Shown here piece after piece: positions 3,870 to 63,092 of a DNA stretch of 64,000 bases. Under the pieces are notes generated by a model. It ran no database searches. It was not told the origin of the DNA and saw nothing but the letters and a program-made list of their open reading frames with translations. Origin of the DNA: a virus (lineage: Duplodnaviria > Caudoviricetes); IMG/VR virus record IMGVR_UViG_3300050821_001527, positions 64,001 through 128,000 of that record. The stretch is one strand, 5' to 3'. Made by a program: the position numbers and the translations under genes. Positions within the stretch are counted from its first letter, which is position 1. Every line of letters starts with the position of its first letter.

Positions 3870-3870
3870 C

Positions 3871-7362: not shown

Positions 7363-7368
7363 GGTATA

Positions 7369-7397
7369 AGATTACGGTATGTTTCGGGTTTTGTCAA
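7369..7397 (-). promoter_or_regulatory. Sigma70-like promoter, 6 nt upstream of the ATG (leaderless)
   Basis: TTGACA-N17-TAATCT-N6-ATG on the minus strand. Confidence 0.75.
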
Positions 7398-11071: not shown

Positions 11072-14000
11072 ATGCAGTTTGTGTTCACAGGTTTCAGGAG
11101 CGGGGACGTGCTGGATTATGCCCCGGCAAGCGGAGGCGAAAACTCCGGGGTTTTCCGTGGCCTGACCCGAGCAAAGACCGCCCCGACTGGCATAAGCTAC
11201 GGCCTCGTTTTCACGACTTCCCCTCCCGACAGTTCGATTGACATTTTCGATTCCAACTTCACAGGCCCGTATTATCTCTATGGATGGGCGGGCGCGGGAA
11301 GGACTTTTTCGGGCGAATACGTTACCCCGTCCTGTTCCATTTACGAAACCTGCCACGGTATCAGGCAACCCGACAAGCCGTTCAAGAACTTCTACAACGC
11401 CTACTATCGTCATGGATTCTTTGAATCTCCGTGGGGAGCAAATCCGACCCGAACATCGGTATTGTCGAACTTTGGAACGTCCAGAACGCTTACCCAATCC
11501 GATGCCGGGGATGCGATAAATTTCGCAGACGCATTCCAAATCACCGTAGAAGAATACCATCAGTTGAACGGAATCGTTCCTATTAACTGTGGTGGTGGAA
11601 AGTCCCCCGAAAACTGCAATCCACTTATCTCCCCCTTGCAGCACTTTCGCTACTTCTATTACGAATGCCCGAGTGACATTGACGCGAATTGTCCGACCTA
11701 TCAGGAAGCGGAAATCAAATGGGTTCCGGGCAACGGAATTGAATATGCGGGGCCGAGTGGTTATCCTTCCTATATCTTCGGGGGAAGCCTATACAACAAT
11801 TCTCCCATCCCTACCGTATTGGACTTGGATGGAAACTTCTTCATGCAGGATGTGTGCGCCGTGGGAGGCAACATCAACATCTACAATAACAATCTCTGCC
11901 CTGCTCTGGTATTGGAAACGGACACGTCCATACTTAGAGGCAGCAACGACCTAATGGCTACCTTCGTGGCCAACGCCATCGCTGGTTTTGGATTCGCCGG
12001 ACTGGGTGGGAATGGCAAGGGCGGAAACGTTGATGGATATGGAGCGGGAGCGCAAGACCTTGGCAATGAAGACTGGTGGTTCTGGAACTTCGTGTATCAA
12101 GAAAACGCGGACACATTTCCGTTTGATAACAGCCCCGACGAAGGAAGGGTAATCGGCAAGCCTGTCACCAGTAACATAGTCAATTCAGACGGCTCTGTTA
12201 CCGTGGTGACTACTCAGAGAACGGACGGAAATAACCCAACCCCTCAGACCTTTGACTCGTCTATCGCTTGGGAAAGCTGGTATTGGCAGCACCGTCTTTG
12301 CGCGGACTATCCGAAATACCTGCCTTGGACTTTCGGGGCCAACATCTTTGCCTCGCCTGAAACCTACTTTGAAGTTCCGTATTACTCTGCCATTGGTAAA
12401 TATGGATTCTATGGAGTGAGGTTCCTTGAGTCTGCCGGGACGTTAATCAACCCGGATGGAACAGTGAACAGTGGATGCACGACGGGAGACAACGCGAATC
12501 CCTTTGATAACGCGACTGTGGGACTCGGCGGGCCTGAAATTTATAACAGGCTGCTGAAGACTTCCGCCCTACAGAGGAAATACAGCGATTACTACGCCGG
12601 AAATCAAGGATTGTTCTTGGCCCTGAACTACGACTTCCTTACCGGGGACGCGGGATACAACAGGCTACAGAACTTCACAAAGAGCGGAATCAAAGTCCTG
12701 CATGACAAGTTTTGGATTGAATGCAAATACTCCCAGATGGGTGAGCCTTACTTGTTGACGGCTTGGATTAACGACATCCCAACGCTCTACAATGACAACG
12801 GCTATCTTGAAATCAACCCTAATGGCTCTGTCACAGACCCAATCAATAACGTCACCCATACTGGGTATTACAGGTCTGGTGTTCCTGACAGTTATCTATA
12901 TACCAACAATCTGTTCGAGAGTGTGTTCTTTAATCAGGGGGACTTGCCTGCCTTCGACGCCGGTTTCATTGGTAAGTATGGCAACTACATCGTTCGTGAC
13001 ACGCAGGGGAGTCTCAACACCGGAAGCTACAACTTCATGGCGAATGTCCAGAGGAATCTTTCCCATAAGAGAAACTTGGGTAACGAATCCTACGGAACGC
13101 CGGTTGACCTGTATCCAATGGGCAGGATTTATTACGGAATGGACGACCCTTCGGGATATTACAATGCGTTCTGGCTGGTCGCCCCGAACAGCAAGAGTAA
13201 GCCCCCGCAAATCCCAAGAAGATATTTCGAGGGGTATTACGCGTCGAACTCGGGAGTATTCCCTAATCTATCCGCACTCCAAACCTACACTCCGGTTGGG
13301 GAGCCATTGGGATTCAACGCCGGGTTCTACAACAAAATTGGCAATGGGAAAATGCACCCGAAACGCGGTTATGTTCCAGTGGCCTCTGGCAACGGACTTA
13401 CGAATAACAATACACATGTGCATTTGGATTATACAGGCGTTCTGCAAGTTTTGGGCTACCACCAAATCGGGGTTTTAGACCCGAGCTTCTCATGCTTTAA
13501 CCCAATCTTTGTTCAACAGCCAAACGACATTATCTGCAAGGTTGGGCAAACGCCTACGTTCAGGTCGCTCGCGGTTGATTACCACACCTTGCCGGAAGAC
13601 AAAGTTCAGGATGGGCGATGGCCGGAAATCAATTATTGGGCTGACAGACTCAAGCTGACCGATGATAATGGAAAGATTATATCCAAGCTTTCCTATAAGT
13701 GGGGAAGGTTCCCTACTGGGCTATACGCTAATTACAACTTGGGGAATCTGAGCGGAGTGGAATGGTCTAATCCCACGGGCGAATGGTGTAACCTAGAAGG
13801 CGACGGAAGCAATAACTGCACAGTCATCCACCCAAATGAATGCGTCCCGAAACTAACGGGATACAGAACTTCAATCACTCCGGGGCTTCCTAACCAATTC
13901 GCTGAGTTTGTAAAGGGTGCCAAGGTGGGTATTGACGACCAATATTACTACTTCTGCGTAGTCTCGGGCATCTTCGGGGAAAGAAGAAGCGAGCCTGCCC

Positions 14001-52681: not shown

Positions 52682-52755
52682 GCGGTAGTGGTGAAATAGT
52701 ATCACACGACGTTGCCAACGTTGAAGCGTCGGGGCAGAACCGACTTACCGCACCA
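52682..52755 (+). tRNA. trnG-GCC: tRNA-Gly(GCC)
   Basis: Cloverleaf, CCA; T loop GGCAGAA. Confidence 0.85.
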
Positions 52756-52833
52756 ATTACTTCTCGCAGGAGTGCGATGGGCCAATCCAAAAGGTTCGCC
52801 CGCTAAAAACTCCCCGTCCAACGACGGGCATAC

Positions 52834-52905
52834 ATCCAGTTGTTCAAGAGAACAATGCGAACTCCAAATCCGCAGAGCAGGGCGCGATACCTTGACTGGA
52901 TGCCA
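52834..52905 (+). tRNA. trnW-CCA: tRNA-Trp(CCA), miniature D arm
   Basis: Loop CTCCAAA, G73, T loop CGCGATA. Confidence 0.65.
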
Positions 52906-52906
52906 T

Positions 52907-53386
52907 TTAATGAGGGTTGTGTTTGACGACCCTTTCGCATAGAGCGATAAACTCGTCAACCGAAAGGTCTTGTTTAGCGTAGTTCACTTCGCTAGTAACC
53001 AAGCCACAGTTCGCCAGAGATGATTCGCCGCCTTTTGAAACTGCGACGATATGGTCTAGGGAATAGGTTTCCGGCTTGGAAATGTCAATTCTTTCACCAG
53101 TAAGATAGCAGCGTGGCTCACTTCCGATTTTATCCTTGAGTTGTTGAACGGTGAATTTGACGACTTTTGGGCGCACAGAACTTCTTCGATTGCCCCTGTA
53201 AAACGTCGCAATCTTAGAAACGAGAGGATTAGTTTCTCGGTAGTTTTTGGTGTTCTTTTGCATAGAAAGCTTTCTGTTCGGGCTGAAACGGTAGATAAGA
53301 GTCCATTTTGAGATTCCGGTTTCCTTGGCAACCGCGTCATAGCTCATTCCGTCAGTAAGCATTTTTTGAATTTTTTCATCGTTCAT
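52907..53386 (-). CDS. HTH-HNH endonuclease inserted antisense in the tRNA array
   Basis: CYLTG...SLDHIV..SKGG...LANCGL....N.AK; GTGTAAT-N7-ATG start. Confidence 0.88.
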   Translation of the reverse strand: MNDEKIQKMLTDGMSYDAVAKETGISKWTLIYRFSPNRKLSMQKNTKNYRETNPLVSKIATFYRGNRRSSVRPKVVKFTVQQLKDKIGSEPRCYLTGERIDISKPETYSLDHIVAVSKGGESSLANCGLVTSEVNYAKQDLSVDEFIALCERVVKHNPH

Positions 53387-53437
53387 ACAAGATATTACAC
53401 TTGCAAATTGCCAGTGGGAACTTGCAATGACGATTTT

Positions 53438-53509
53438 GGGCGTGTGTAGAAGGCTACTGGTTTGCTTTGCAAGCAAATTGTCGGGGAGCGTTACCCCGCA
53501 TGTCCACCA
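53438..53509 (+). tRNA. trnA-UGC: tRNA-Ala(UGC)
   Basis: G3.U70, loop TTTGCAA, T loop AGCGTTA. Confidence 0.85.
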
Positions 53510-53515
53510 ATTTTA

Positions 53516-53678
53516 CGGGTGTTGGCGAAAGTCAGTCAAGCTGACAGCGGAACCGTTAGAAAACCCGCCAAACGCAACCTCAAGTGTGGAGAATACTGGC
53601 TCATATAATTGCCTGAAAAGGCGATACAATGGGGGTTTTTAATGTCTCCTTGTGGGTATAACTCCCACACACCCGCCA
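53516..53678 (+). ncRNA. tRNA shell with about 90-nt structured insert in the anticodon arm (Lys-UUU-like if excised)
   Basis: GGGTGT/ACACCC-G-CCA, D arm, GACA/TGTC stem, T arm GTGGG-TATAACT-CCCAC. Confidence 0.55.
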
Positions 53679-53679
53679 A

Positions 53680-53875
53680 TTTCAGTAGCATTAGCGGTTA
53701 AGGCAATACGATTAGTTACGTGAGCCTCCGTCCACAAGGTAGTGGGTATAATCAAGAAACAAGTGACTCGGTGCCTAAAAGGAGTCATCCCAATGAGCGG
53801 GCGAAAGCTTGTCGCGTTCACCGATTACAAGGTGCATTGGTGCGATAAATGCAGGGTGCGAATCCCAAGCTGAAA
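53680..53875 (+). ncRNA. Multi-hairpin RNA with 3' T-arm mimic
   Basis: TTTCAGT/GCTGAAA closing stem, at least 5 internal hairpins, GGG-TGCGAAT-CCC. Confidence 0.5.
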
Positions 53876-53997
53876 GTATTTCTATCGGCATCAACACAAT
53901 GAACACACCGGCTTAAATGAGTTTCATAACTATGTTGAGTTAGCCGCGTGGTGCTGGTGAGTCGGCGGGTAATCAATCCCGTATGGAGAAAAGTTTC

Positions 53998-54071
53998 GGG
54001 GTTGTGGTTCAATAGCAGAACGGCGGATTCGCAATTCGCAGACGACGGCGCGATACCGTCCTACTCCACCA
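53998..54071 (+). tRNA. trnA-CGC: tRNA-Ala(CGC)
   Basis: G3.U70, loop TTCGCAA. Confidence 0.85.
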
Positions 54072-54081
54072 ATTTCAATTT

Positions 54082-54158
54082 CCGGCCTGCCGTTTGGGTG
54101 CGAGTCCCAAGTTTAAGCAAGTGAAAGCGGCTAACTAGCATAGGTCAATGGTCGGCCA
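54082..54158 (+). ncRNA. T-arm-first (permuted) tRNA-like RNA ending in CCA
   Basis: CCGGCC/GGTCGG-CCA; TTGGG-TGCGAGT-CCCAA near the 5' end. Confidence 0.45.
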
Positions 54159-54162
54159 ATTT

Positions 54163-54236
54163 GGGGTCATAGTTCAATAGTAGAACGCGAGGCTGGCAGT
54201 CTTGTAATCAGAGTGCGATTCTCTGTGGCTCCACCA
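54163..54236 (+). tRNA. trnA-GGC: tRNA-Ala(GGC)
   Basis: G3.U70, loop CTGGCAG. Confidence 0.85.
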
Positions 54237-54343
54237 ATTTCTGAAACGTTCGGGATGGTGTAACGCGCTTTGGCGGTTCATTCGCCATTGCGAACTTCCG
54301 TTGTATCGAGAGAAGCGAAACGGCGTTTCGGGCAAACTTTAAT

Positions 54344-54437
54344 GGCCGGTGTCCCCATCGGGAGTCTGTAAAACTTCTATGCTTACAAATGTGATGGGAA
54401 GTTGCACCGAAGGAGCGTTACCTTCACCGCGCCACCA
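54344..54437 (+). tRNA. Atypical tRNA-Tyr(GUA), D-armless
   Basis: Loop CTGTAAA, bulged acceptor, T loop AGCGTTA, ACCA. Confidence 0.55.
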
Positions 54438-54651
54438 ATTTCTTCTTGACCGAAAACCAGACCTGTAAACCGAATGTCCCGGTAGGTTGCACGTATTGGT
54501 GAGTAAGAGGACACAGGAAGGAAAATTTTCATCCACTGGCGCACTGGCGCTAGTGCGAGATTCGGGGTGGGTGGCAATGAAGACCGAAGCCCCGACAACG
54601 CGAAACCTGCAAAAAGTGGTTTAACTACCGAGAGAGAGGACTCGGCGTAAT

Positions 54652-54727
54652 GGTGGTATTGATGTAATAGTTAGCATCTTCCCCTGTGAAGGGAACTGTG
54701 CGGGTGCGAATCCCGTATATCACCCCA
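54652..54727 (+). tRNA. trnH-GUG: tRNA-His(GUG)
   Basis: Encoded G-1:C73, loop CTGTGAA. Confidence 0.9.
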
Positions 54728-54767
54728 ATTTCATTCACGTAGAACATGAAAGTGTGTAATAAAAGTT

Positions 54768-55214
54768 ATGAGCAGCGTTGACTCACTCGAAAACCACGAC
54801 CAGTTCCATTTGGAACAACTGCACAAGCTTTCCTGTCAAAGCGGCTCGAAGGACATTCTCGTTATTGACGATAGCACGGGCGACTTGATGGACATTCAGA
54901 AGATTATGAACCTCAAGTATGCAGACCAATTTCACGTAAGGTATTGTCTGGACGCTGAAAAGGGGATTGAGATTCTCAAGGAAAACAATTTCTTTTTGGT
55001 TTTGCTCGATTTCAAGATGCCGAAGTTGAACGGTCTTGAAGTAATCGAGACGGTAAACAAGATGAAGCAGAACGTTCCGTTCGTAGTTTTGACGGGATAC
55101 GGCGACCCATCCATGCGCGAAGCATTGACAAGATTGGGCGTAATGCTCCTGTTGGACAAGCCAATCACGGAGAAGAAGCTGGACATGCTCCTGACTTTGA
55201 CTCACGCGAAATAA
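54768..55214 (+). CDS. Stand-alone CheY-like receiver domain
   Basis: IDD, LLD.KMP..NG, LTG, DKP all intact. Confidence 0.92.
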   Translation: MSSVDSLENHDQFHLEQLHKLSCQSGSKDILVIDDSTGDLMDIQKIMNLKYADQFHVRYCLDAEKGIEILKENNFFLVLLDFKMPKLNGLEVIETVNKMKQNVPFVVLTGYGDPSMREALTRLGVMLLLDKPITEKKLDMLLTLTHAK

Positions 55215-55219
55215 TTTCT

Positions 55220-55296
55220 GGCCGCATAGCTCAAATAGATAGAGCAGCACCCCGCGAAGGTGAAGGTTGTAGGTGCGACTCCTACTGTGGCTACCA
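55220..55296 (+). tRNA. trnR-GCG: tRNA-Arg(GCG), C33
   Basis: Loop CCGCGAA; D loop AAATAGATA; T loop TGCGACT. Confidence 0.75.
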
Positions 55297-55493
55297 TTTT
55301 CCCGCATAGTCCGTTGAGCAGCCCCGTAGCAACGAGGAAACAAAAGCTTGATGGTTCAGCCAAGCCGTGCGCCAGCGCGGTATTTGCGTGGTGCGAGTCC
55401 ACGGGGAACGATTTATCCCCCTGCTGGTATAGTCCAGCGAAGTAGGTGAGGCTAACCTATGAGTGGTTCGTAACGCACAAGAGGGAATTTTAT

Positions 55494-55576
55494 GGGCATG
55501 TAACCGAAGCAGTCCTCGAAACTGATTAACCGTAATTATGTTGCAAATGTGGGTGAGATTCCCTCCATGCCTACCA
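55494..55576 (+). tRNA. tRNA-like gene, anticodon unresolved (possible pseudo-tRNA)
   Basis: GGGCATG/CATGCCT-A-CCA and T arm present; anticodon stem poorly paired. Confidence 0.45.
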
Positions 55577-55662
55577 ATTTCTCTGTTTGACAATCGAGCC
55601 TAAATAGTCTGCACAGACGGCGCGGGTTCGTAGATGTTGTGCGAAACGGAGGATTCATTTCT

Positions 55663-55755
55663 GTTCCCGTAGCTGAAAGACAGCCGGTGCCCTTATAAAG
55701 CACTTAATCGCTAGATTGGCGTAAGACTCAGGAGCGTTACCTGACGGGAATACCA
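55663..55755 (+). tRNA. tRNA with UAU anticodon and long variable arm
   Basis: Loop CTTATAA; TAATC-GCTA-GATTG variable hairpin. Confidence 0.7.
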
Positions 55756-55762
55756 AATTTTA

Positions 55763-55846
55763 CGCATCGTGACATAAGCGCGAATAGCACAGCCACACGT
55801 CTCAAAAATGTGAGTTTTAAGGGTGCGAGTCCCTTCGATGCGACCA
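55763..55846 (+). tRNA. trnL-CAA: tRNA-Leu(CAA), short V region, insertion before the D stem
   Basis: Loop CTCAAAA, A73. Confidence 0.75.
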
Positions 55847-55852
55847 ATTTAT

Positions 55853-55928
55853 GTGCCTATGATGGAATAGCATACATACCAGCCTCAGAAGTTGGGTTTT
55901 GCAGGTGCGAGTCCTGCTAGGCATACCA
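55853..55928 (+). tRNA. trnL-CAG: tRNA-Leu(CAG), class I-like short V loop
   Basis: Loop CTCAGAA. Confidence 0.8.
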
Positions 55929-55933
55929 TTTCC

Positions 55934-56017
55934 CGCTCCGTGACCTTGTAGCGAACAGCACAGCTTGCCGTCTTAGACACGGTGGTTTTGCAGGTGCGAG
56001 TCCTGTCGGAGCGACCA
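55934..56017 (+). tRNA. trnL-UAG: tRNA-Leu(UAG), short V region, insertion before the D stem
   Basis: Loop CTTAGAC. Confidence 0.75.
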
Positions 56018-56022
56018 ATTTA

Positions 56023-56110
56023 GCCAGTGTGGTGAAAGAGCAGACACACCATCTTGAGAAGGTGGCGCGAATAAAGTAGCGTGTAGGTGCGAATCCTATC
56101 ACTGGCACCA
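56023..56110 (+). tRNA. trnL-GAG: tRNA-Leu(GAG), long V arm
   Basis: Loop TTGAGAA. Confidence 0.85.
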
Positions 56111-56192
56111 ATTTCCTAATGGAAGGTCTGTTAGGACACAGTAGCAGTCGAGATTCTAACCGCCTCGCCGGGGCGTTGCTACACGGCATTAC

Positions 56193-56267
56193 GGTCTATT
56201 GTTGAATGAGTTATCATAGTTCCCTGTCACGGAGCAATAACGGGTGCGAGTCCCGTATAGACCGCCA
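56193..56267 (+). tRNA. trnD-GUC: tRNA-Asp(GUC)
   Basis: Loop CTGTCAC, G73. Confidence 0.85.
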
Positions 56268-56272
56268 TTTTA

Positions 56273-56340
56273 CGGCTGAGTTAGCGATTCCTGCGCGTGG
56301 GAACGAGACGATTCACTTCGTTTAACTGATGAAGCCGCCA
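56273..56340 (+). ncRNA. 68-nt CCA-ended RNA with a T-loop-like hairpin first
   Basis: CGGCT/AGCCG-CCA; AGTTAG/TTAACT; TTCC-TGCGCGT-GGGA. Confidence 0.4.
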
Positions 56341-56345
56341 ATTTT

Positions 56346-56422
56346 GGGATAGAAGGTAAAGTAGTGGAACCGTTCCGTTGTCTGCGGAAAAAAAGTGGGT
56401 GCGACTCCCATCTATCTCGCCA
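56346..56422 (+). tRNA. trnD-GUC: tRNA-Asp(GUC), second copy, U37
   Basis: Loop TTGTCTG, G73. Confidence 0.75.
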
Positions 56423-56517
56423 TTTTGTCAGAGAAGTCCGTCAACCATGCGGTTGACCCGTATGGAGAACGTCGAGTTCAGACATATTGTATAGCTGGCC
56501 ACTTAGGACTTCCGTTC

Positions 56518-56595
56518 AGTCAGTGAGGGAGTAAGATAACCCCGACGCCTGCAAAGCGTTTCGTATAGTCGGAGCATTACCGACACTGACTTCCA
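56518..56595 (+). tRNA. trnC-GCA: tRNA-Cys(GCA)
   Basis: Loop CTGCAAA, U73, T loop AGCATTA. Confidence 0.85.
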
Positions 56596-56599
56596 TTTC

Positions 56600-56676
56600 G
56601 TCCTAATGGTGTAAGGGAATTACAACACGGTAGTCTTCGGACTACAGATGCAAGCCAACTATTGCAAGGGACTCCA
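56600..56676 (+). ncRNA. tRNA-like RNA with a cUUCGg tetraloop replacing the anticodon loop
   Basis: GTAGTC-TTCG-GACTAC; D and T arms; CCA end. Confidence 0.5.
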
Positions 56677-56680
56677 ATTT

Positions 56681-56757
56681 CGGTTTGTCGCCTAGTGTTC
56701 ATGGCACTCGCCTTGGGAGCGAGCATAACGCGGGTTAAAATCCCGCCAAGCCGACCA
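56681..56757 (+). tRNA. trnP-UGG: tRNA-Pro(UGG)
   Basis: Loop CTTGGGA; T loop TTAAAAT with D-loop GT (U19-A56). Confidence 0.85.
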
Positions 56758-56766
56758 TTTTTTAGA

Positions 56767-56843
56767 CGGGGTATAATGTCAGCAGCTAGACGGCTCCCTT
56801 CGGAGGGGAGAGGCCGTGGGTGCGAATCCCACTACCCCGACCA
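56767..56843 (+). tRNA. trnP-CGG: tRNA-Pro(CGG)
   Basis: Loop TTCGGAG. Confidence 0.85.
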
Positions 56844-56847
56844 TTTA

Positions 56848-56918
56848 TGCAGGAAGAATGAGATTCAAGCGGGCCTCATAAGCCTACCCCCGTGGACGCG
56901 ACTTCCACTCCTGCTTCC
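56848..56918 (+). tRNA. tRNA-Met(CAU)-like, 1:72 mismatch, short D arm
   Basis: Loop CTCATAA; T loop CGCGACT. Confidence 0.55.
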
Positions 56919-56963
56919 ATTTTTTATCGAACAGAAACCGTTCTCCGATATAATAGATATTTA

Positions 56964-57041
56964 CGCGGGGTGGACAAGTAGTAAGTCGTTGGCCTCATAA
57001 GCCAAATATCGTCAGGTGCGATTCCTGACCTCACGCAACCA
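56964..57041 (+). tRNA. trnfM-CAU: Initiator tRNA-fMet(CAU), bulged acceptor
   Basis: CGCGGGG 5' end, C1:A72, loop CTCATAA. Confidence 0.8.
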
Positions 57042-57044
57042 TTT

Positions 57045-57461
57045 ATGGAAGACGCCGTTCTCAACACGCAAAAAGCCTTGGACACCGCATTGGCATCATT
57101 GAATGCGCTGGCTAAAAAAGATTACGTTCCTCCGACAACCCCCGACATTGACCCCGAAACTGAAATGCCGATTAAAGGGAATGGCACGGAAGAATATGAT
57201 ACCGAAGACGCTTACGAGGATGGGGAAGAAGCAGTCCGTCTGTGCATTGAAATTGCCCAGTTGAGGCTAGAGGTCGAGGGCCAGCCCCGCCGTGCTATCG
57301 TCAACACGGAAAAGGCGGCAGAAATCCGAGCAAGGGGAGCGATTGACAAGGTAAGACCAGAGCGTCACCTGAGCGTTTCTCCCGAACTTATCAAGAGTAT
57401 CGAACATTCCGTAGCTAAACCGGAAATGATGTTCTTCGTTTTGGAAGAACCCAAGGAATAA
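57045..57461 (+). CDS. Hypothetical acidic protein, 138 aa, within the tRNA array
   Basis: ORF exactly fills the gap between two tRNAs. Confidence 0.65.
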   Translation: MEDAVLNTQKALDTALASLNALAKKDYVPPTTPDIDPETEMPIKGNGTEEYDTEDAYEDGEEAVRLCIEIAQLRLEVEGQPRRAIVNTEKAAEIRARGAIDKVRPERHLSVSPELIKSIEHSVAKPEMMFFVLEEPKE

Positions 57462-57467
57462 GATTTC

Positions 57468-57542
57468 GCGTTGTTGGCAGAGAAGTGATGCGCTTGCCTT
57501 CCAAGCAAGTTTAAGTGGGAGCATTACCCACACAACGCTCCA
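57468..57542 (+). tRNA. trnG-UCC: tRNA-Gly(UCC)
   Basis: Loop CTTCCAA, U73. Confidence 0.85.
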
Positions 57543-57545
57543 ATT

Positions 57546-57970
57546 TGTCCGAAGCTATAATCCCCGTGCGTAATAGCACTAAGCGCAAGTAGGCCGAAAG
57601 GCAGAACCGTGATGGTGGATGAACTGCTCGTCTAAAATATCGGCTACATAATTTAGTCAGGTCGTCGGTCTGTCGTTGCGGTGAGCAATCACCAAGCCTA
57701 TGGGACGGCGGCTCGAAAAGGTATCCGTAAGCTGGCAGGAATCGCTTGTGCAAGATTCCACTACCGAAGGAGAATGCGGCGAAAGCCAAGTTCGTTCGCA
57801 CTTGTAGTAGGTCAGTCATCTCAGCCGAGGCAGGCATTTTCAAAATCGTTAGGGTTAGTCCAACCACGGTAAAACGTGAGAGGGGTCATAAAAGACTGCA
57901 AGCGTCACCCTGCCTAAAACCCCCTGTTGGTGAGTGGATAGTTGAAAACGAGGTCAGCGATGACCTGACT
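57546..57970 (+). ncRNA. Large ornate structured RNA (GOLLD/ROOL-like candidate)
   Basis: 13-bp long-range helix 57655-57667/57958-57970; several GNRA-capped hairpins. Confidence 0.6.
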
Positions 57971-57973
57971 TTT

Positions 57974-58049
57974 AGCCGCATGGTGAAATTACAATCACAC
58001 AATCCTGCGAAGATTGAAGTCCCGGTGAGATTCCGGGTGCTGGCTACCA
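57974..58049 (+). tRNA. trnR-GCG: tRNA-Arg(GCG), second copy, bulged acceptor
   Basis: Loop CTGCGAA. Confidence 0.75.
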
Positions 58050-58053
58050 TTTT

Positions 58054-58128
58054 GCGACATAGGTGTTTATAGATACACGCGAGTCTTCCAAACTTGAGTA
58101 GTGAGTGCGATACTCACACGTCGCTCCA
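58054..58128 (+). tRNA. trnG-UCC: tRNA-Gly(UCC), second copy
   Basis: Loop CTTCCAA, U73. Confidence 0.8.
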
Positions 58129-58133
58129 ATTTA

Positions 58134-58186
58134 TGCACCCAAAACTTGCAAGTTACTCGACCCATGAATCGAGTGTGGTGCAACCA
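58134..58186 (+). ncRNA. 53-nt two-hairpin RNA ending in ACCA (armless tRNA-like)
   Basis: TGCACC/GGTGCA-A-CCA; ACTCGA-CCCATGAA-TCGAGT. Confidence 0.4.
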
Positions 58187-58192
58187 ATTTAT

Positions 58193-58267
58193 TCCCTAGT
58201 AGTGTCAAAGTAGCACGTCTCCCTGTTAAGGAGTTTAGTGTTGGTGCGAGTCCAACCTTCGGAACCA
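58193..58267 (+). tRNA. trnN-GUU: tRNA-Asn(GUU), mismatched acceptor
   Basis: Loop CTGTTAA. Confidence 0.65.
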
Positions 58268-58279
58268 TTTAGTCAGCAT

Positions 58280-58364
58280 TCCAGAGTAGGAGAATTGGTA
58301 AACCCAGCGGACTGTTAATCCGCCGCGAAAGCAACTGCTCGTTCAAGTCGAGCCTCTGGAGCCA
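58280..58364 (+). tRNA. trnN-GUU: tRNA-Asn(GUU), canonical elbow, extra variable hairpin
   Basis: D loop GG, T loop TTCAAGT, GC-GAAA-GC variable arm, G73. Confidence 0.9.
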
Positions 58365-58474
58365 TTTTCAAGACATTTCCCCTGACGAAAGCTCTACGAT
58401 GTAGAACATCGCACCAGCAAGTCATGGTTACATGACGTGTCCGTGGACGCACGGAAGCGGGGAGTTTGAATTTT

Positions 58475-58552
58475 GCATCCGTCAACCAAACGCGTAAATG
58501 ACTCGGGCTTTTAACCCAAAGGATGTGGTCACGCAAGCCACCGGATGCACCA
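58475..58552 (+). tRNA. trnK-UUU: tRNA-Lys(UUU)
   Basis: Loop CTTTTAA; divergent T loop. Confidence 0.7.
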
Positions 58553-58670
58553 ATTTCTACCTGAACACAAGTGCTATGTCATCGAGCCAAGTCACGGTTA
58601 TTGTGTATCGTGAAAATTCCGTTGACAATGTAGCAATGCGCGAGAAAGACGCGCACGGGTTCCTTTTCAT

Positions 58671-58744
58671 AGGGATATAGTATAAAAGTAGAACGGCACC
58701 CTGACACGGTGAAGGCGAAGGAGCGTTACCTTCTATCCCTACCA
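58671..58744 (+). tRNA. trnV-GAC: tRNA-Val(GAC)
   Basis: Loop CTGACAC. Confidence 0.85.
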
Positions 58745-58750
58745 TTTTAT

Positions 58751-58830
58751 GAGAATCGAGACGCGGGTGCATATCCCGCCTGCCTGTTTAAATACTTGCA
58801 GTAGCTTAGTAGCAGAGCGCGATTCGTCTC
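58751..58830 (+). ncRNA. YrlA-type Y RNA (permuted tRNA mimic), A18.G55 version
   Basis: Outer GAATCG/CGATTC, T arm, loop-closed acceptor CTGC/GCAG, TA, D arm GCTT-AGTAGCA-GAGC. Confidence 0.75.
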
Positions 58831-58838
58831 CCTTTTAC

Positions 58839-58917
58839 GGAACGGTAACTCAAATGGGTCAAGAGTGTTCGCCCGATTAGCGAAAGGTTGTGGACTCCCA
58901 AGCCACTCGTTCTACCA
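58839..58917 (+). tRNA. trnI-GAU: tRNA-Ile(GAU)
   Basis: Loop CCGATTA. Confidence 0.75.
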
Positions 58918-58922
58918 ATCAC

Positions 58923-58995
58923 GGTTCCATACGATAAAGCAGTCCCCATGCCCGATTAGCGTGGTGTCTTGGTGCGAGTCCAAGTGGAACTACCA
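58923..58995 (+). tRNA. trnI-GAU: tRNA-Ile(GAU), second copy
   Basis: Loop CCGATTA. Confidence 0.7.
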
Positions 58996-59000
58996 TTTAC

Positions 59001-59076
59001 TGCCCTTTAGCTCATTCAGCAGAGCGGCGTCTTGATAAGGCGAAGGTGGTCGGGGCAGAGCCGACAAGGGCAACCA
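59001..59076 (+). tRNA. trnI-GAU: tRNA-Ile(GAU), third copy
   Basis: Loop TTGATAA. Confidence 0.85.
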
Positions 59077-59079
59077 ATT

Positions 59080-59244
59080 ATGAAACCATACGGATTGACA
59101 AAGAAAATCCTACACAACCATCCCGATGTTCACCCGCCGAAGGGCTGGGTCAACTGGTGGGAAAGCGAAACGAGGGACTGTCTCCGCAAGAAAGCAGAAC
59201 GCCAACAGGCGAAAAAACAGATTTTACAAGATTTGGCTTCGTAG
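59080..59244 (+). CDS. 54-aa basic peptide (HPPKGWVNWWE motif); stop lies inside the next tRNA
   Basis: ATG directly after a tRNA CCA-ATT spacer. Confidence 0.6.
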   Translation: MKPYGLTKKILHNHPDVHPPKGWVNWWESETRDCLRKKAERQQAKKQILQDLAS

Positions 59245-59311
59245 CTCAAGCGTCAAGAGCAGCCGCCTTTTAAGCGGAAGCGTCCGGGCAGTCAATCCGG
59301 TGGGGCCACCA
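59235..59311 (+). tRNA. trnK-UUU: tRNA-Lys(UUU), second copy
   Basis: Loop CTTTTAA; T loop CAGTCAA. Confidence 0.8.
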
Positions 59312-59457
59312 ATTTATAAACACCTAGACCGTGTGCGATACCGGCATGGTTTCGTGAGTCGGCTATGTCGAAGCCGAAGAAGATTCGCGGGACTTGGAGT
59401 GTGAAAGAAGCACGGGTGTATTTTTTTGAATAAAAAGCGGATTCGTTTATCATAGGT

Positions 59458-59835
59458 ATGCAAAACGTTTATCTGAACCGCGACGAACTCCTGCCGATTG
59501 TCAAGGAGAACAAGCAAAAGCACGACAACATTTTTTCCACAGCCGTTTCCGGCTATTGGGTCAAGGCCGAAGAAATCCTGAACGGCAAACTGAACAAGGT
59601 CAAAGCCAAGCAGCAAGTTGACAATTACCTTGGACTCAGCTATCCCGAAGACCATTCTGATGAATATGACCGAGTAATCAGGATGCTGGAACTTTCGTCT
59701 GATGACAAGATTCAGCTTACGTCTTCCGAGTTTGATTGCTATGTTCGCAATCAATGGAACTGGCGCAAGGCGTTCTTGACGGTCAATTCAACATACATTT
59801 CGGACTGGAACCCCATTTCCGGGGCTTCATTCTAA
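59458..59835 (+). CDS. Hypothetical helical protein, 125 aa
   Basis: TATCAT -10-like element 4 nt upstream; plausible fold. Confidence 0.7.
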   Translation: MQNVYLNRDELLPIVKENKQKHDNIFSTAVSGYWVKAEEILNGKLNKVKAKQQVDNYLGLSYPEDHSDEYDRVIRMLELSSDDKIQLTSSEFDCYVRNQWNWRKAFLTVNSTYISDWNPISGASF

Positions 59836-59915
59836 CAGTCTTGGTCGAGGCGTGGGTTCGATTCCGCCGTGTGGCTCCATGCCGCACGTAGCTTAGTGGC
59901 AGAGCGCGACCTGTT
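59834..59915 (+). ncRNA. YrlA-type Y RNA, canonical G18.U55 version
   Basis: GGTCG/CGACC outer stem, TTCGATT loop, 7-bp loop-closed acceptor GTGTGGC/GCCGCAC, D arm GCTT-AGTGGCA-GAGC. Confidence 0.8.
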
Positions 59916-59916
59916 C

Positions 59917-59991
59917 GGGGCTATGGTGCAGAAGTAAGCACGTTAGGTTCTCAACCTGAAAACGTCGGAGCGTTACCGACTAGCCCTACCA
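59917..59991 (+). tRNA. trnE-CUC: tRNA-Glu(CUC)
   Basis: Loop TTCTCAA. Confidence 0.85.
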
Positions 59992-59997
59992 ATTTAC

Positions 59998-60073
59998 GGG
60001 GGAGTGGTGCATAAGTAAGCACGGTTGGCTTTCACCCAGCAGAAGCTCGGAGCGTTACCGGCCTCCCCTACCA
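59998..60073 (+). tRNA. trnE-UUC: tRNA-Glu(UUC)
   Basis: Loop CTTTCAC. Confidence 0.85.
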
Positions 60074-60078
60074 TTTCT

Positions 60079-60156
60079 GTAGCTGACCAGTAAGTCGTCG
60101 TCTGCTCTGGCTTTCAACCAGATGTGTAGTGGGTGCGAGTCCCACCAGCTATGCCA
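60079..60156 (+). tRNA. trnE-UUC: tRNA-Glu(UUC), second copy
   Basis: Loop CTTTCAA, G73. Confidence 0.8.
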
Positions 60157-60219
60157 TTTCCGGGGTGCGCCTCGTCAATTCGTTGATAGGACGGCGAATA
60201 TATCACCCCACTTTTTCTC

Positions 60220-60297
60220 GGTTCCGTGGTGTAAATGGATTAAGCACAAGAGACTTTGACCCTCTTAGCTCCGGGTGCCAGCCGGACGGAACTGCCA
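60220..60297 (+). tRNA. trnQ-UUG: tRNA-Gln(UUG)
   Basis: Loop CTTTGAC, G73. Confidence 0.8.
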
Positions 60298-60304
60298 TTT
60301 TTAT

Positions 60305-60380
60305 TCCCTCTTGGATTGTAATAGTAGCAACTCGGGCTTTGAACCCGAAAGCGGTGGGGCAGAACCATCAGAGGGAGCCA
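60305..60380 (+). tRNA. trnQ-UUG: tRNA-Gln(UUG), second copy
   Basis: Loop CTTTGAA, U1-A72, G73. Confidence 0.88.
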
Positions 60381-60465
60381 TTTATCGGGGTAAGGGTGTA
60401 TTCGTGTAACGACCACTCGGAAGGAGTCTGGAAGCTTACGGACAAACTTCGTCCCCATCTATTTT

Positions 60466-60541
60466 CGGAGTGTATTGTCAACAGCAGACGGCCCGCCTTG
60501 GAAGTGGGAGGTAGTTGGGGCAGCACCAACCATTCCGACCA
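60466..60541 (+). tRNA. trnP-UGG: tRNA-Pro(UGG), second copy, A37
   Basis: Loop CTTGGAA. Confidence 0.85.
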
Positions 60542-60545
60542 ATTT

Positions 60546-60728
60546 ATGAACACTGAAAAAATCGTAGGTCAAGAATATCCAGCCGAATGTCTCGTTGATT
60601 CCAAGACGGGTCTGCCGGTGATGATTCGTCATACCGAAGATTCGGACAGGATTCGTCAGTTGGCGAAGGCCAGCGCGGAGAACCTTCTGAGGGCTTTGCG
60701 AGACGAAACGGGGCTGACGCCCATTTAA
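60546..60728 (+). CDS. Hypothetical protein, 60 aa, between tRNAs
   Basis: ORF fills the tRNA spacer exactly. Confidence 0.55.
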   Translation: MNTEKIVGQEYPAECLVDSKTGLPVMIRHTEDSDRIRQLAKASAENLLRALRDETGLTPI

Positions 60729-60733
60729 TTTAC

Positions 60734-60809
60734 GGGTCTATAACTCAAATAGATAGAGCCTCGCCTTCTAAGCGATGGGATTCAGGTGCGACTCCTGATA
60801 GACCTACCA
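60734..60809 (+). tRNA. trnR-UCU: tRNA-Arg(UCU)
   Basis: Loop CTTCTAA. Confidence 0.88.
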
Positions 60810-60866
60810 TTTCTAGTATAGCCACATGGCGTTTCACAAGTGCTTCAACTAGGTGTAATTCTAGGT

Positions 60867-61343
60867 ATGGGCCACAAAGCTACAAACGAACAACTGGCGG
60901 TTATTATCGCAGAGTCTATTTCCTTCTCTGAGGCAATGAGAAAATGCGATATGAAGCCAAGGGGAGCGTCTTACCAATGGTTTCAAAAACGAGTTAAGAA
61001 GCTCGGATTAGACACGTCTCATTTTAAGGGATACTCGGCTGGTGGTCTGGAAAGGGCCAAGCAGATAAAGAAGCATTGGTCGGAGATTCTTGTTTTAGGA
61101 GACGGTTCGGGCAGAGAAAGGTCAGAGCCTCTTAGGAGGGCTTTTAAAGAATACTGCTTAGAGCAGGCAGTCCCACATATTTGCAACGTCTGCAACGTCT
61201 GCAAGATGGAACCAATTTGGAATGGCCAGCCAATGATATTTCAAATTGACCACATCAATTCAATCAATTTCGATAACAGACCGCTGAACCTTCAATGGAT
61301 TTGCGGCAACTGTCATCAACAGAAAAATTCTAACGGCTACTAA
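60867..61343 (+). CDS. HNH endonuclease (second) in the tRNA array
   Basis: LDTSHF N-terminal module; C..C...FQIDHIN....DNR..NL.W.C.NCH. Confidence 0.9.
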   Translation: MGHKATNEQLAVIIAESISFSEAMRKCDMKPRGASYQWFQKRVKKLGLDTSHFKGYSAGGLERAKQIKKHWSEILVLGDGSGRERSEPLRRAFKEYCLEQAVPHICNVCNVCKMEPIWNGQPMIFQIDHINSINFDNRPLNLQWICGNCHQQKNSNGY

Positions 61344-61410
61344 GCTAATCAAGTGAAAGCAGCGGACTGAAAATCCGTGGAGTTTGGCGCGATACCAAAA
61401 GTAGCCACCA
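61335..61410 (+). tRNA. trnF-GAA: tRNA-Phe(GAA)
   Basis: Loop CTGAAAA; overlaps the HNH stop. Confidence 0.85.
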
Positions 61411-61415
61411 ATTTT

Positions 61416-61563
61416 GGGTATATGTTGTAATGGCAGCAAAAAGGGCGGGAGAGTCGAGGGAATAGCAGACCAACTATAGCTCTGTAAGCCTAGTAGCTCG
61501 ATTTGAAAACCTGAATACTCGTCTATACGAGTGGCCTCGGTTCGATTCCGGGTATATCCACCA
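61416..61563 (+). ncRNA. 148-nt tRNA shell (G3.U70, canonical elbow) with about 60-nt insert
   Basis: GGGTATA/TATATCC-A-CCA; D loop GG; T loop TTCGATT; variable hairpin; GTCGAG/CTCGAT-closed insert. Confidence 0.65.
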
Positions 61564-61567
61564 ATCT

Positions 61568-61646
61568 CCGTCAGTAGCTCAAATGTGGTAAGAGCGTTGG
61601 TTTGAAACACCAAAGGTTGTCGTTCCCCAAACGACTTGACGGGCCA
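61568..61646 (+). tRNA. trnF-GAA: tRNA-Phe(GAA), second copy, G73
   Basis: Loop TTGAAAC; T loop TCCCCAA. Confidence 0.7.
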
Positions 61647-61666
61647 TTTTAAGTGTATAATTCTGT

Positions 61667-61921
61667 GTGGAAGCACTAGCAAAACAGACCCTTCAATGTG
61701 ATGACTGCAAGAAAGTCATTGACACCCGCCGCGATACTGACCTTGAGGACAGCATCCAAGCGAAGTTGAAGAACCTCAAGGGCGACCCGCAGGTTTATCA
61801 TTTCTGCGCGGAAAGCTGCCTTGCCTCCTTTTTGCAGAAGCGCATCAAGAAAAAGAACGCCCGCGCCTCATACGACGCTTTCGCCTACGAGATTGATTTG
61901 TCCGGGGCAAAGGTTAAATAA
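61667..61921 (+). CDS. Small metal-binding (TRASH-like) protein
   Basis: CDDC...HFC..SC; TATAAT 5 nt upstream of GTG. Confidence 0.6.
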   Translation: MEALAKQTLQCDDCKKVIDTRRDTDLEDSIQAKLKNLKGDPQVYHFCAESCLASFLQKRIKKKNARASYDAFAYEIDLSGAKVK

Positions 61922-62130
61922 TGAAATTTTCATCTTTCGCCAAGCTTGTGTTGATTTTCGGGGCAGCGATTATGCTCCTTGATGGTTGCGCTCTCGTTGG
62001 TTGTAATCACGCATTCCCGCAAGTCGAATGGTATTGGTCAGCCGATGCTAAAGCCTGTCGCAAGGAACACGCGATGGAAGCCCAGTGGCGACAGTCCGCA
62101 ACAAACAATTTAAGGCAGTCGTTCAAGTGA
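61921..62130 (+). CDS. Small predicted lipoprotein
   Basis: Hydrophobic signal plus LDG-C. Confidence 0.5.
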   Translation: MKFSSFAKLVLIFGAAIMLLDGCALVGCNHAFPQVEWYWSADAKACRKEHAMEAQWRQSATNNLRQSFK

Positions 62131-62184
62131 ACAAGATGCTCTCATAAGGCGTCAAGGATGGAGCGTTACCATCGTCTGCTACCA
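62114..62184 (+). tRNA. trnM-CAU: tRNA-Met(CAU), miniature D arm
   Basis: Loop CTCATAA; GTTC-AAGT-GAAC. Confidence 0.65.
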
Positions 62185-62189
62185 ATTTC

Positions 62190-62266
62190 GGATTCGTAGC
62201 TCAAATGCTAAGAGCAGCCGGTTCTTACCCGGAAGGTTGTGGCTCGTCAAGCCACCGAGTCCACCA
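62190..62266 (+). tRNA. trnK-CUU: tRNA-Lys(CUU)
   Basis: Loop TTCTTAC; D-loop GC with T loop TCGTCAA (C19-G56). Confidence 0.85.
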
Positions 62267-62270
62267 TTTA

Positions 62271-62340
62271 TGGCCGTCAGCCTGAACCCCATCAGGCTAG
62301 TCCACCAAGGACGATGCAGAGGGTTATGCAACGGCATCCA
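62271..62340 (+). ncRNA. Three-hairpin cloverleaf ending in TCCA, no canonical loops
   Basis: GCCGT/ACGGC; AGCCTGA/TCAGGCT; GTCC/GGAC; TGCA/TGCA. Confidence 0.4.
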
Positions 62341-62344
62341 TTTC

Positions 62345-62416
62345 GCCAGTGCCGTCAGCACGGATTCGAGTTTTGTAAACTTGAAGCAGTCGGGGCAGCA
62401 CCGACCTCTGGCTCCA
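62345..62416 (+). tRNA. trnT-UGU: tRNA-Thr(UGU)
   Basis: Loop TTTGTAA. Confidence 0.8.
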
Positions 62417-62420
62417 TTTC

Positions 62421-62556
62421 GCCGTTCTAGTTCAATGTAGAACACGTCTCTCGAAAAGCCGATAGGCTCCCTGAACGGAGCAGTTAGTGGGGTGTTTGCC
62501 CTGCGATGTAATAAGGCCAGATGAACTGCTGGTGCCAAGTCCAGCGAACGGCTCCA
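62421..62556 (+). tRNA. tRNA-Ser(CGA)-like with about 65-nt variable region
   Basis: GCCGTTC/GAACGGC-T-CCA; loop CTCGAAA; multi-hairpin variable region. Confidence 0.6.
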
Positions 62557-62626
62557 AACTAGGCTGCGCGTGGTAGCCTCAGAGGGGTGAAAGTCCCTAA
62601 CCACGACAAATTTAATTCAATTTAAT

Positions 62627-62701
62627 CGCCCGTTCTGAATAATAGTAGTTCGTCGCGCTCTGAACGCGAAGGCGGTGGGGCAGAACCATCACGGGTGGCC
62701 A
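62627..62701 (+). tRNA. trnQ-CUG: tRNA-Gln(CUG)
   Basis: Loop CTCTGAA, G73. Confidence 0.85.
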
Positions 62702-62706
62702 TTTAC

Positions 62707-62780
62707 GCGGGATTAGCTCAAAAGTAGAGCGAGTCGTTTACACCGACAGGACGAGGGAGCATTACCTTCATTCCGCACCA
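62707..62780 (+). tRNA. trnV-UAC: tRNA-Val(UAC)
   Basis: Loop TTTACAC. Confidence 0.88.
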
Positions 62781-62785
62781 TTTAC

Positions 62786-62862
62786 GCAATCGAAGCTACA
62801 GCAGACCGGCTCCCGGCTCTTAACCGGATTTGGTGAGGTTGCAACTACCTCCGATTGCACCA
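62786..62862 (+). tRNA. trnK-CUU: tRNA-Lys(CUU), second copy
   Basis: Loop CTCTTAA. Confidence 0.8.
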
Positions 62863-62866
62863 TTTC

Positions 62867-62946
62867 GCGGTCTTAGCTTAAACGGATAAAAGCCCTTCGC
62901 TCTTAACGAATGAGATGTCGCCCTCCAAGCAGGACAGACCGCACCA
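62867..62946 (+). tRNA. trnK-CUU: tRNA-Lys(CUU), third copy, irregular T arm
   Basis: Loop CTCTTAA. Confidence 0.7.
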
Positions 62947-62957
62947 ATTTGATTACA

Positions 62958-62998
62958 CCCCTGCCGCCTCTTGACAATGCGTAATCGCAGGGGTTTTT
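62958..62998 (+). terminator. Probable terminator near the end of the array
   Basis: CCCCTGC/GCAGGGG plus T5. Confidence 0.55.
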
Positions 62999-63006
62999 CC
63001 ATTTAT

Positions 63007-63092
63007 GGCCGTGTGTAGCGTAAGGGAAAAGCAGAACCGATAGACTTAAAATCTGTTGCTACTTGAGGGTGCAAGACCGTCCACGGCTACCA
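63007..63092 (+). tRNA. trnL-UAA: tRNA-Leu(UAA), insertion before the D stem pairing with the V region
   Basis: Loop CTTAAAA; GTAGCG/TGCTAC extra helix. Confidence 0.75.

Follow-up and report, generated by a model that had tools for sequence, protein, structure and literature searches.

What are two ~80-nt tRNA-like elements doing within the tRNA array of a soil phage, when neither has an anticodon loop or an open acceptor end? The stretch analyzed here (the window, 64,000 nt) comprises bases 64001-128000 of the 202,882-bp linear virus record IMGVR_UViG_3300050821_001527 (G000; an uncultured phage from soil, estimated completeness 91%). Its + strand carries an array of more than 30 recognizable tRNA genes plus a gene for transfer-messenger RNA (tmRNA). 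Two modules that sit within this array, mod1 and mod2 (Table 1), had been described by a first-pass annotation, made from the letters of the DNA, as YrlA-type, circularly permuted tRNA mimics differing at exactly the 18/55 pair. Our results showed that the modules are real, and they are probably functional. We give a probability of about one-half to the interpretation that they are Ro-independent mimics of the tRNA body, i.e., decoys or adaptors for a factor that reads the tRNA body or elbow. This interpretation draws on their topology, on compensatory changes between the two paralogues, on the dimorphic pair that one relative also carries, and on the absence of both partner genes and the YrlA-type handle.

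In both modules, the elements are ordered as outer stem, T arm, loop-closed acceptor-like hairpin, U8-A9, D arm, and outer stem. Stem pairs were counted by script (a MAFFT alignment did not put the two hairpins in structural register), and each module was found to be fully paired in its outer (5/5), T (5/5), and D (4/4) stems. The four-way junction was the minimum-energy structure of both modules when folded with RNAfold (ViennaRNA). The T stem of mod2 pairs fully only around a 6-nt loop, TTCGAT, which was chosen by both Infernal and RNAfold; the 7-nt loop read earlier, TTCGATT, leaves two T-stem mismatches. A permuted-cloverleaf descriptor in its looser form matched only mod1 and mod2 on the + strand of the 202,882-bp genome (~0.1 matches per shuffled genome). 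The specific form, in which outer, T, and D stems must be perfect, G52, G53, C56, U8, A14, and A21 must be present, and the closed hairpin must have 6 or more of 8 pairs, likewise matched only mod1 and mod2 in the genome and nothing in 20 shuffled genomes. Sequence, folds, and descriptor therefore bear out the claim that two circularly permuted tRNA-like elements lie at these positions. Neither module is called by ARAGORN or by the Rfam tRNA model. Since the outer stem of each continues as a helix and the acceptor is sealed by a loop, there is no anticodon loop and, as transcribed, no free 3' end that could be aminoacylated; consequently, the modules cannot decode.

Several other candidates were set aside during these searches. 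Loose structural descriptors were discarded because they returned thousands of chance matches. At 54082-54158 of the window, an apparent third copy shows a good T arm (TTGGG-TGCGAGT-CCCAA) and an outer stem, but both the D arm and the closed acceptor hairpin are missing, and its constrained fold was 2.9 kcal/mol worse than its minimum-energy fold. An attP-type tRNA fragment was ruled out, since the complementary 5' half comes directly after.

The two modules share 22-mers, GTAGCTTAGT[A/G]GCAGAGCGCGA (58801-58822 and 59888-59909), that run from the last base of the acceptor through the D arm into the outer stem, and that differ by a single base at position 18. These were the only two occurrences in the window at up to 3 mismatches, where none would be expected by chance. 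Position 55 of the T loop switches together with position 18, giving A18/G55 in mod1 and G18/U55 in mod2. Thus, the one-base difference (A vs. G) between the D arms and the G55/U55 difference between the T loops were both correctly noted at first, but the idea that the modules differ at exactly 18/55 holds only for the 22-mer. Aligned identity between the modules is ~77-81%, with T loops that differ at 4 positions, acceptor hairpins of unrelated sequence, and further differences in the T and outer stems. Most of these differences are compensatory. Indeed, the outer stem has undergone 2 double substitutions (A-T, A-T to G-C, G-C) and the acceptor hairpin 4, with the helices retained. The flanks are common to both copies (TCGAG[A/G]CG[C/T]GGGT on the 5' side and the 22-mer on the 3' side), which argues for descent from one already-permuted unit.

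The elbow difference between the modules has a counterpart in the surrounding array. Among 29 tRNAs parsed from the array (window 52682-63092 and beyond; 116.6-131.2 kb of G000), ~21 carry G55 with AG in place of GG in the D loop. The G55-type T loops read TGCGAxT, AGCGTTA, GGCAGAA, CGCGATA, and AGCATTA, and the few TTC tRNAs, such as the one at 58280, keep GG. The elbow of mod1 (TGCATAT with AGTAGCA) is therefore of the phage type and that of mod2 (TTCGAT with AGTGGCA) is canonical, in agreement with the initial assignment of one phage-type and one host-type mimic. Covariation of 18 and 55 (A18 with G55, G18 with U55) was observed in 4/4 modules, i.e., mod1, mod2, and two in a related contig, and across the parsed array tRNAs. 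Nor is the G55 T arm confined to this phage: over 118 IMG/VR contigs contain the T arm TTGG-TGCAWAT-CCAA, so G55 loops could be a widespread feature of phage tRNAs. With a near-identical D arm and an 18/55 pair that switches together, here and likewise in the relative, mod1 and mod2 constitute a natural control for the A18/G55 elbow.

To look for close relatives, an exact scan of IMG/VR with the 22-mer and a blastn search of GenBank phages were performed, neither of which gave a match; IMG/VR protein-pattern scans with the 125-aa open reading frame (ORF) next to mod2, the RNR gene, and an ORF-family alignment returned no relative. Homologues of the 125-aa ORF (35-65% identity) were found in other metagenome contigs. 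In one of these, the NCBI metagenome contig L008, the 65%-identical ORF lies within a tRNA/tmRNA array whose tRNAs are also of the G55 type, and a tandem pair of modules occurs immediately behind two tRNAs, ~50 nt upstream of the ORF. Both satisfy the specific descriptor with perfect outer, T, and D stems, the sequences of which are unlike those of G000. Considering that the L008 pair has the same order (G55/A18 followed by U55/G18) and adjoins the same gene but has different stem sequences, these results argue for a selected structure. The minimum-energy fold of the first L008 module is the expected junction (z = -2.05), and the junction fold of the second lies no more than 0.6 kcal/mol from its minimum. 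The loop TGCA[A/T]AT is common to both G55-type modules and absent from the 29 parsed array tRNAs, which supports orthology. Across the four modules, the acceptor hairpin is the least conserved part (20 to 57 nt, imperfect in 3/4), whereas the elbow and the geometry of the junction do not vary, making the elbow the likely surface under selection. In ~0.6 Mb of metagenome loci, the specific descriptor found no match beyond the known modules, and over ~1.8 Mb of other loci in total it produced no spurious match.

The homologues of the 125-aa ORF in L007, L009, L010, L011, L115, and L116 are not located in tRNA arrays and are not accompanied by modules, and contig L114 ends directly upstream of its homologue. 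A response-regulator gene was tried as an anchor for the array and was unusable, since its copies share only 19% identity. In L006, a related phage contig of 202 kb, the tRNA array contains a weak raiA RNA motif match at 9848-10151 (52.9 bits, gathering score 101).

Table 1. Coordinates of the two modules, their neighbors, and comparable modules (window positions for the phage locus; contig positions for the others).
Feature	Position	Strand	Details
mod1, permuted closed-acceptor tRNA mimic, phage-type elbow	58751..58830	+	Fold, descriptor, metatranscriptome contig coverage
mod1 core	58754-58824	+	AATCG, AGAC, GCGGG-TGCATAT-CCCGC, CTGCCTGT-TTAAAT-ACTTGCAG, TA, GCTT-AGTAGCA-GAGC, G, CGATT
mod1 outer stem	58754-58758/58820-58824	+	Extension 58751-58753/58825-58830, one bulge
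mod1 variable region		+	AGAC
mod1 T arm	58763-58779	+	Loop TGCATAT, G55
mod1 acceptor-like hairpin	58780-58801	+	6/8 pairs, loop TTAAAT
mod1 T8-A9	58802-58803	+	
mod1 D arm	58804-58818	+	Loop AGTAGCA, A18 G19
mod2, permuted closed-acceptor tRNA mimic, canonical elbow	59834..59916	+	Fold, descriptor, metatranscriptome contig coverage
mod2 core	59843-59911	+	GGTCG, AGGC, GTGGG-TTCGAT-TCCGC, CGTGTGGC-TCCAT-GCCGCACG, TA, GCTT-AGTGGCA-GAGC, G, CGACC
mod2 outer stem	59843-59847/59907-59911	+	Possible extension AACA 59834-59837/TGTT 59912-59915 across 5-nt bulge
mod2 variable region		+	AGGC
mod2 T arm	59852-59867	+	Loop TTCGAT, U55
mod2 acceptor-like hairpin	59868-59888	+	8/8 pairs, loop T-CCA-T 59876-59880
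mod2 T8-A9	59889-59890	+	
mod2 D arm	59891-59905	+	Loop AGTGGCA, G18 G19
Upstream tRNA	58671..58744	+	CCA encoded; ends 9 nt 5' of mod1 core
125-aa ORF	59458..59835	+	Function unassigned; stop codon abuts mod2
tRNA-Glu(CTC)	59917..59991	+	Starts 5 nt past mod2 outer stem
L008 module 1	5761-5834		GCCAG, ATTC, CTTGG-TGCAAAT-CCAAG, AU-rich closed hairpin, TG, ATGT-AACAGTA-ACAT, CTGGC; G55/A18
L008 module 2	5843-5949		TACGG, AAGT, TAGGG-TTCGATG-CCCTA, 57-nt closed hairpin, TG, ATGT-AATTGGCA-GCAT, CCGTA; U55/G18
L120 permuted mimic	7328-7400	-	67-kb IMG/VR contig
L139 permuted mimic	4887-4957		111-kb IMG/VR contig
L187 permuted mimic	11882-11950		318-kb IMG/VR contig

Expression of the region was examined in a soil metatranscriptome (X3). 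A contig with a depth of 70 covers 56975-58953, including mod1, and a second with a depth of 8 covers 59391-60431, including the 125-aa ORF, mod2, and the tRNA-Glu pair, with nothing between the two contigs; the uncovered stretch at 58954-59243 is not interpretable. Since the depth in X3 is uneven (70, 0, 8) and that of two DNA runs is flat (~9.5), the contigs suggest RNA rather than DNA carry-over. Both modules may thus be transcribed within the phage tRNA operon as paralogous small non-coding RNAs of ~80 nt and could be released by the enzymes that process the neighboring tRNAs, with mod1 being freed by 3' processing of the upstream tRNA and the 3' end of mod2 being formed by the RNase P cut at the 5' end of tRNA-Glu. 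The interval that separates mod1 from the tRNA at 59001 (window 58831-59000) also contains tRNA-like sequences uncalled by ARAGORN or the Rfam tRNA model, e.g., around 58836-58924, with a 3' end of ...TACCA.

Elsewhere, the phage encodes an RtcB RNA ligase (G000 155117-156286, 389 aa, 363 bits) and a PolyA_pol/CCA-adding-type nucleotidyltransferase (G000 9726-10106, - strand), which together would fit a conflict over tRNAs. No Archease was found in G000, and the neighbors of RtcB, PcfJ-like and dGTP diphosphohydrolase-like genes, are not RNA-related. The 125-aa ORF has a sigma-70-like site directly 5' of it and matches no Pfam family. A structure model of its product (predicted local distance difference test score, 82) was without a match in the PDB and yielded only uncharacterized proteins in the AlphaFold DB.

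How might such RNAs act? Each would present an L-shaped body (acceptor/T and D/outer stem) with an intact elbow to a protein or ribonucleoprotein that reads the tRNA body or elbow, candidates being a tRNA-targeting nuclease or toxin, or a processing or modification enzyme, and would act on it as a competitive decoy or as an adaptor. Competitive inhibition of an anticodon nuclease has been proposed elsewhere for a tRNA-like domain (PMC7790460). In the pair, mod2 would mimic canonical, host-type (G18/U55) tRNAs and mod1 the rewired (A18/G55) tRNAs of the phage. With its 7-8-bp acceptor stem and N73-CCA in the loop, mod2 may also be nicked by RNase P into a CCA-ended form of two pieces. Should the mimics indeed serve as decoys for enzymes that target tRNAs, phage counter-defense would gain an RNA-based layer beside spare tRNAs, RtcB, and the CCA-adding enzyme. 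A bolder version, which we consider rather improbable, is that this phage clade rewired its own tRNA elbow and that the pair consists of decoys or regulators for one or more factors that tell host from phage tRNAs by the elbow, e.g., a phage nuclease destroying host tRNAs or a tRNA-attacking defense of the host. If true, elbow reading would make the tRNA elbow a mark of self and non-self in phage-host conflict.

Several observations weigh against a role as tRNA-body mimics. No partner protein was identified for the modules. Sequence profiles for TROVE (PF05731) and vWA_Ro60 (PF25045) had no match in the 203-kb phage genome (91% complete), a search that would miss a Ro60-like fold lacking sequence similarity or an Rsr encoded by the host. 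DUF7873 (PF25283) had no match in G000 even at E ≤ 1, with L060, the positive control, scoring 311.8 bits. The fold-energy z-scores against shuffled sequences are modest (~-1.4), and mod1 has a slightly degraded look, with T54/T58 in place of T54-A58 and two mismatched positions within its acceptor hairpin. Conservation rests on one related contig, L008; at a comparable place, L006 has only an element consisting of a T arm plus hairpin, with no D arm. The 125-aa protein is without a known fold and shows no consistent link to modules among the homologue loci. Lastly, RNA coverage consists of assembled contigs, which give no ends, strand, abundance, or cleavage state and do not formally exclude DNA carry-over.

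The acceptor loop of mod2 bears on two of the alternatives. An N73-CCA directly follows the 3' strand of the closed acceptor stem in mod2 (59876-59880), as it does at the same loop position in unrelated modules of L025, L059, and L060, and this placement could be either a relic of tandem tRNAs or a recognition signal for RNase P/CCA. In the former case, the modules would be non-functional leftovers of the junction between two tandem copies of a tRNA gene (3' half, CCA plus spacer, 5' half) that are still transcribed with the operon. The mod2 loop, N73-CCA plus 1 nt, does resemble a tRNA 3' end followed by a short spacer, tRNA arrays rearrange fast, the mismatched acceptor hairpin and non-canonical T54/T58 of mod1 could be signs of decay, and purifying selection is not directly visible, as searches of IMG/VR and GenBank gave no close relatives. 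However, the shared flanks make mod1 and mod2 paralogues of one already-permuted unit, all four helices were kept through 6 double compensatory changes, and the 22-mer D arm stayed near-invariant while adjoining parts diverged. Considering as well that L008 has an ordered pair with the same elbow dimorphism and different stem sequences, we regard relics as unlikely, though not negligibly so. In the latter case, mod2, and not mod1, would be matured to a two-piece, CCA-ended RNA whose free CCA end is the functional feature, serving as a bait for CCA-targeting toxins or an aminoacylation substrate, a possibility compatible with a decoy role. The RNase P cut would fall in the loop, 5' of G59881 (or C59882), and leave a 5' piece that ends in ...GGC-U-CCA(U). 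Nicking of this kind is plausible, since mod2 has a 7-8-bp acceptor stem followed by U-CCA-U, along with a T arm, and a CCA-adding-type enzyme is encoded by the phage. Moreover, the YrlA of M. smegmatis is cut by RNase P in its loop and carries CCA, and of the YrlAs tested, only this one, which has a 7-bp acceptor stem, showed cleavage with CCA tailing (PMC4201824). The loops of mod1 and both L008 modules lack CCA, so a CCA end cannot be the shared function, and the RNA contigs run uncut through the mod2 loop, although contigs cannot rule out a cut form. A G.U wobble falls at 3.70 or 4.69, depending on the register; the register that has CCA at 74-76 places it at 4.69, which is not the alanine identity position, and alanine identity is not claimed. 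We consider it distinctly unlikely that a nicked, CCA-ended RNA is the functional species of mod2.

Could the modules instead be true Y RNAs, whose outer stem binds a host Ro60/Rsr and tethers it to PNPase as YrlA does? Their tRNA-like domain has the same topology as YrlA, the phage carries RtcB, a gene linked to rsr-yrlA in Salmonella, and GGTCGAGG in mod2 agrees with GNCGAANG at 7/8 positions of the Rsr-binding motif (PMC4201824). The GGTCG/CGACC stem of mod2 had at first been likened to the Ro60-binding helix, but it is the anticodon-stem equivalent. In YrlA, the Rsr-binding helix is a distal stem carrying GNCGAAN0-1G (PMC4201824), and this module is recognizable in the YrlA consensus as GGCGAAUGC ... 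AAAACUUGUCGCC. No such terminal stem or motif was found at either module, nor is there room for one between the flanking tRNAs. Because the upstream tRNA ends 9 nt before the mod1 core, space for a 5' extension of mod1 is limited, and because tRNA-Glu starts 5 nt after the outer stem of mod2, a YrlA-type handle cannot fit. The Rfam YrlA model (RF02553) aligned to mod2 only locally, over model positions 30-81 (T arm, closed acceptor, and D arm), at 15.9 bits (E = 6.5) compared with a gathering score of 69, and did not match mod1 at E ≤ 10. Genuine YrlAs with the same D arm score 69-91 bits and have the handle. Hence the YrlA-type label stands for the topology and for the mod2 alignment and fails for family membership, while the remark that no Rsr gene is seen in the window extends, by profile, to the whole 203-kb genome. 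The outer stems of the L008 modules, moreover, are unrelated, and we consider Y RNAs highly unlikely. The remaining alternative, that these are permuted genes for decoding tRNAs whose transcripts are circularized or ligated (e.g., by the phage RtcB) before being opened at the acceptor, as in Cyanidioschyzon merolae, would be consistent with the permuted order, the CCA after the 3' strand of the mod2 acceptor, and the RtcB gene in the genome. However, the flanks extend the outer stem and offer nothing from which a 7-nt loop could be made with U33 and a purine at position 37, there is no evident motif for a splicing endonuclease, and mod1 has a mismatched acceptor stem and no CCA. RtcB does not ligate 5'-P/3'-OH ends, the type that RNase P produces. 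Nor can the modules be one gene split over the 1-kb gap, since the 5'-half-like part of mod1 and the 3'-half-like part of mod2, when paired by hand, match in the anticodon stem and form no acceptor stem. We therefore view genes for decoding tRNAs as extremely unlikely.

As mimics of the tRNA body, the modules are best compared with YrlA. Like them, YrlA consists of a T arm, a loop-closed acceptor-like stem, UA, and a D arm, enclosed by a stem at the anticodon position. The D arm of the modules is near the YrlA consensus, and its 19-mer, GTAGCTTAGTGGCAGAGCG, also occurs in a bona fide YrlA. Unlike YrlA, the modules have no distal Rsr-binding stem, are ~80 rather than ~115 nt long, lie in a genome with no rsr/TROVE gene, and occur as a dimorphic pair, one member of which has a G55/A18 elbow that TruB could not pseudouridylate. 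Judged by sequence and model scores, then, they are not YrlA members but a variant of the YrlA-like design. To our knowledge, the only role known for YrlA-type tRNA mimics is as partners of Ro60/Rsr, and a literature search on phage tRNA-like decoys returned no paper on such RNAs. Since the tRNA-like domain occurs here alone, flanked by tRNAs, in a phage with neither Ro60 nor DUF7873, it points to a Ro-independent use of a tRNA-body mimic.

Scanning of JGI metagenomes for the D-arm 19-mer recovered ordinary tRNAs and several permuted modules, which help to place the pair. Three tandem YrlAs occur in L059 (90.6, 69.5, and 33.9 bits), and the 69.5-bit copy has the identical 19-mer. L066 (1-5218) has a phage-like array of ~25 tRNAs with a TROVE/Ro60 gene (2754-4076) followed by a YrlA-like RNA (4287-4399, 30 bits), an example of YrlA-type RNAs in phages and tRNA arrays; a fragment matching bacterial RNase P RNA was also observed at the start of this contig. 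In L060 (4147-5222), a permuted mimic that shares the D-arm 19-mer of mod2 and has a hairpin loop of GCCAAACCAT lies just behind a DUF7873 gene. This module is permuted and acceptor-closed like those of G000 but adjoins the DUF7873 gene, whereas G000 has no such gene and none is on record in L008. The modules of G000 are 1 kb apart, with neither embedded in an RNA of ~380 nt, and those of L008 are in tandem. Finally, the specific descriptor found 3 further short, permuted, closed-acceptor modules with canonical elbows (L120, L139, and L187; Table 1) in 1.18 Mb of unrelated IMG/VR loci, and therefore the general design is not new.

Permuted RNA genes of other kinds offer a second comparison. 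Cyanidioschyzon merolae has permuted tRNA genes and alpha-proteobacteria have two-piece, permuted tmRNA genes, in both of which, as in our modules, the 3' half comes before the 5' half. Those genes are processed to functional tRNA or tmRNA, whereas the modules have neither an anticodon loop nor a tag template and their acceptor is sealed. An origin by tandem duplication is likely for the modules, as it is for the C. merolae and tmRNA genes, and mod2 holds a CCA-bearing junction.

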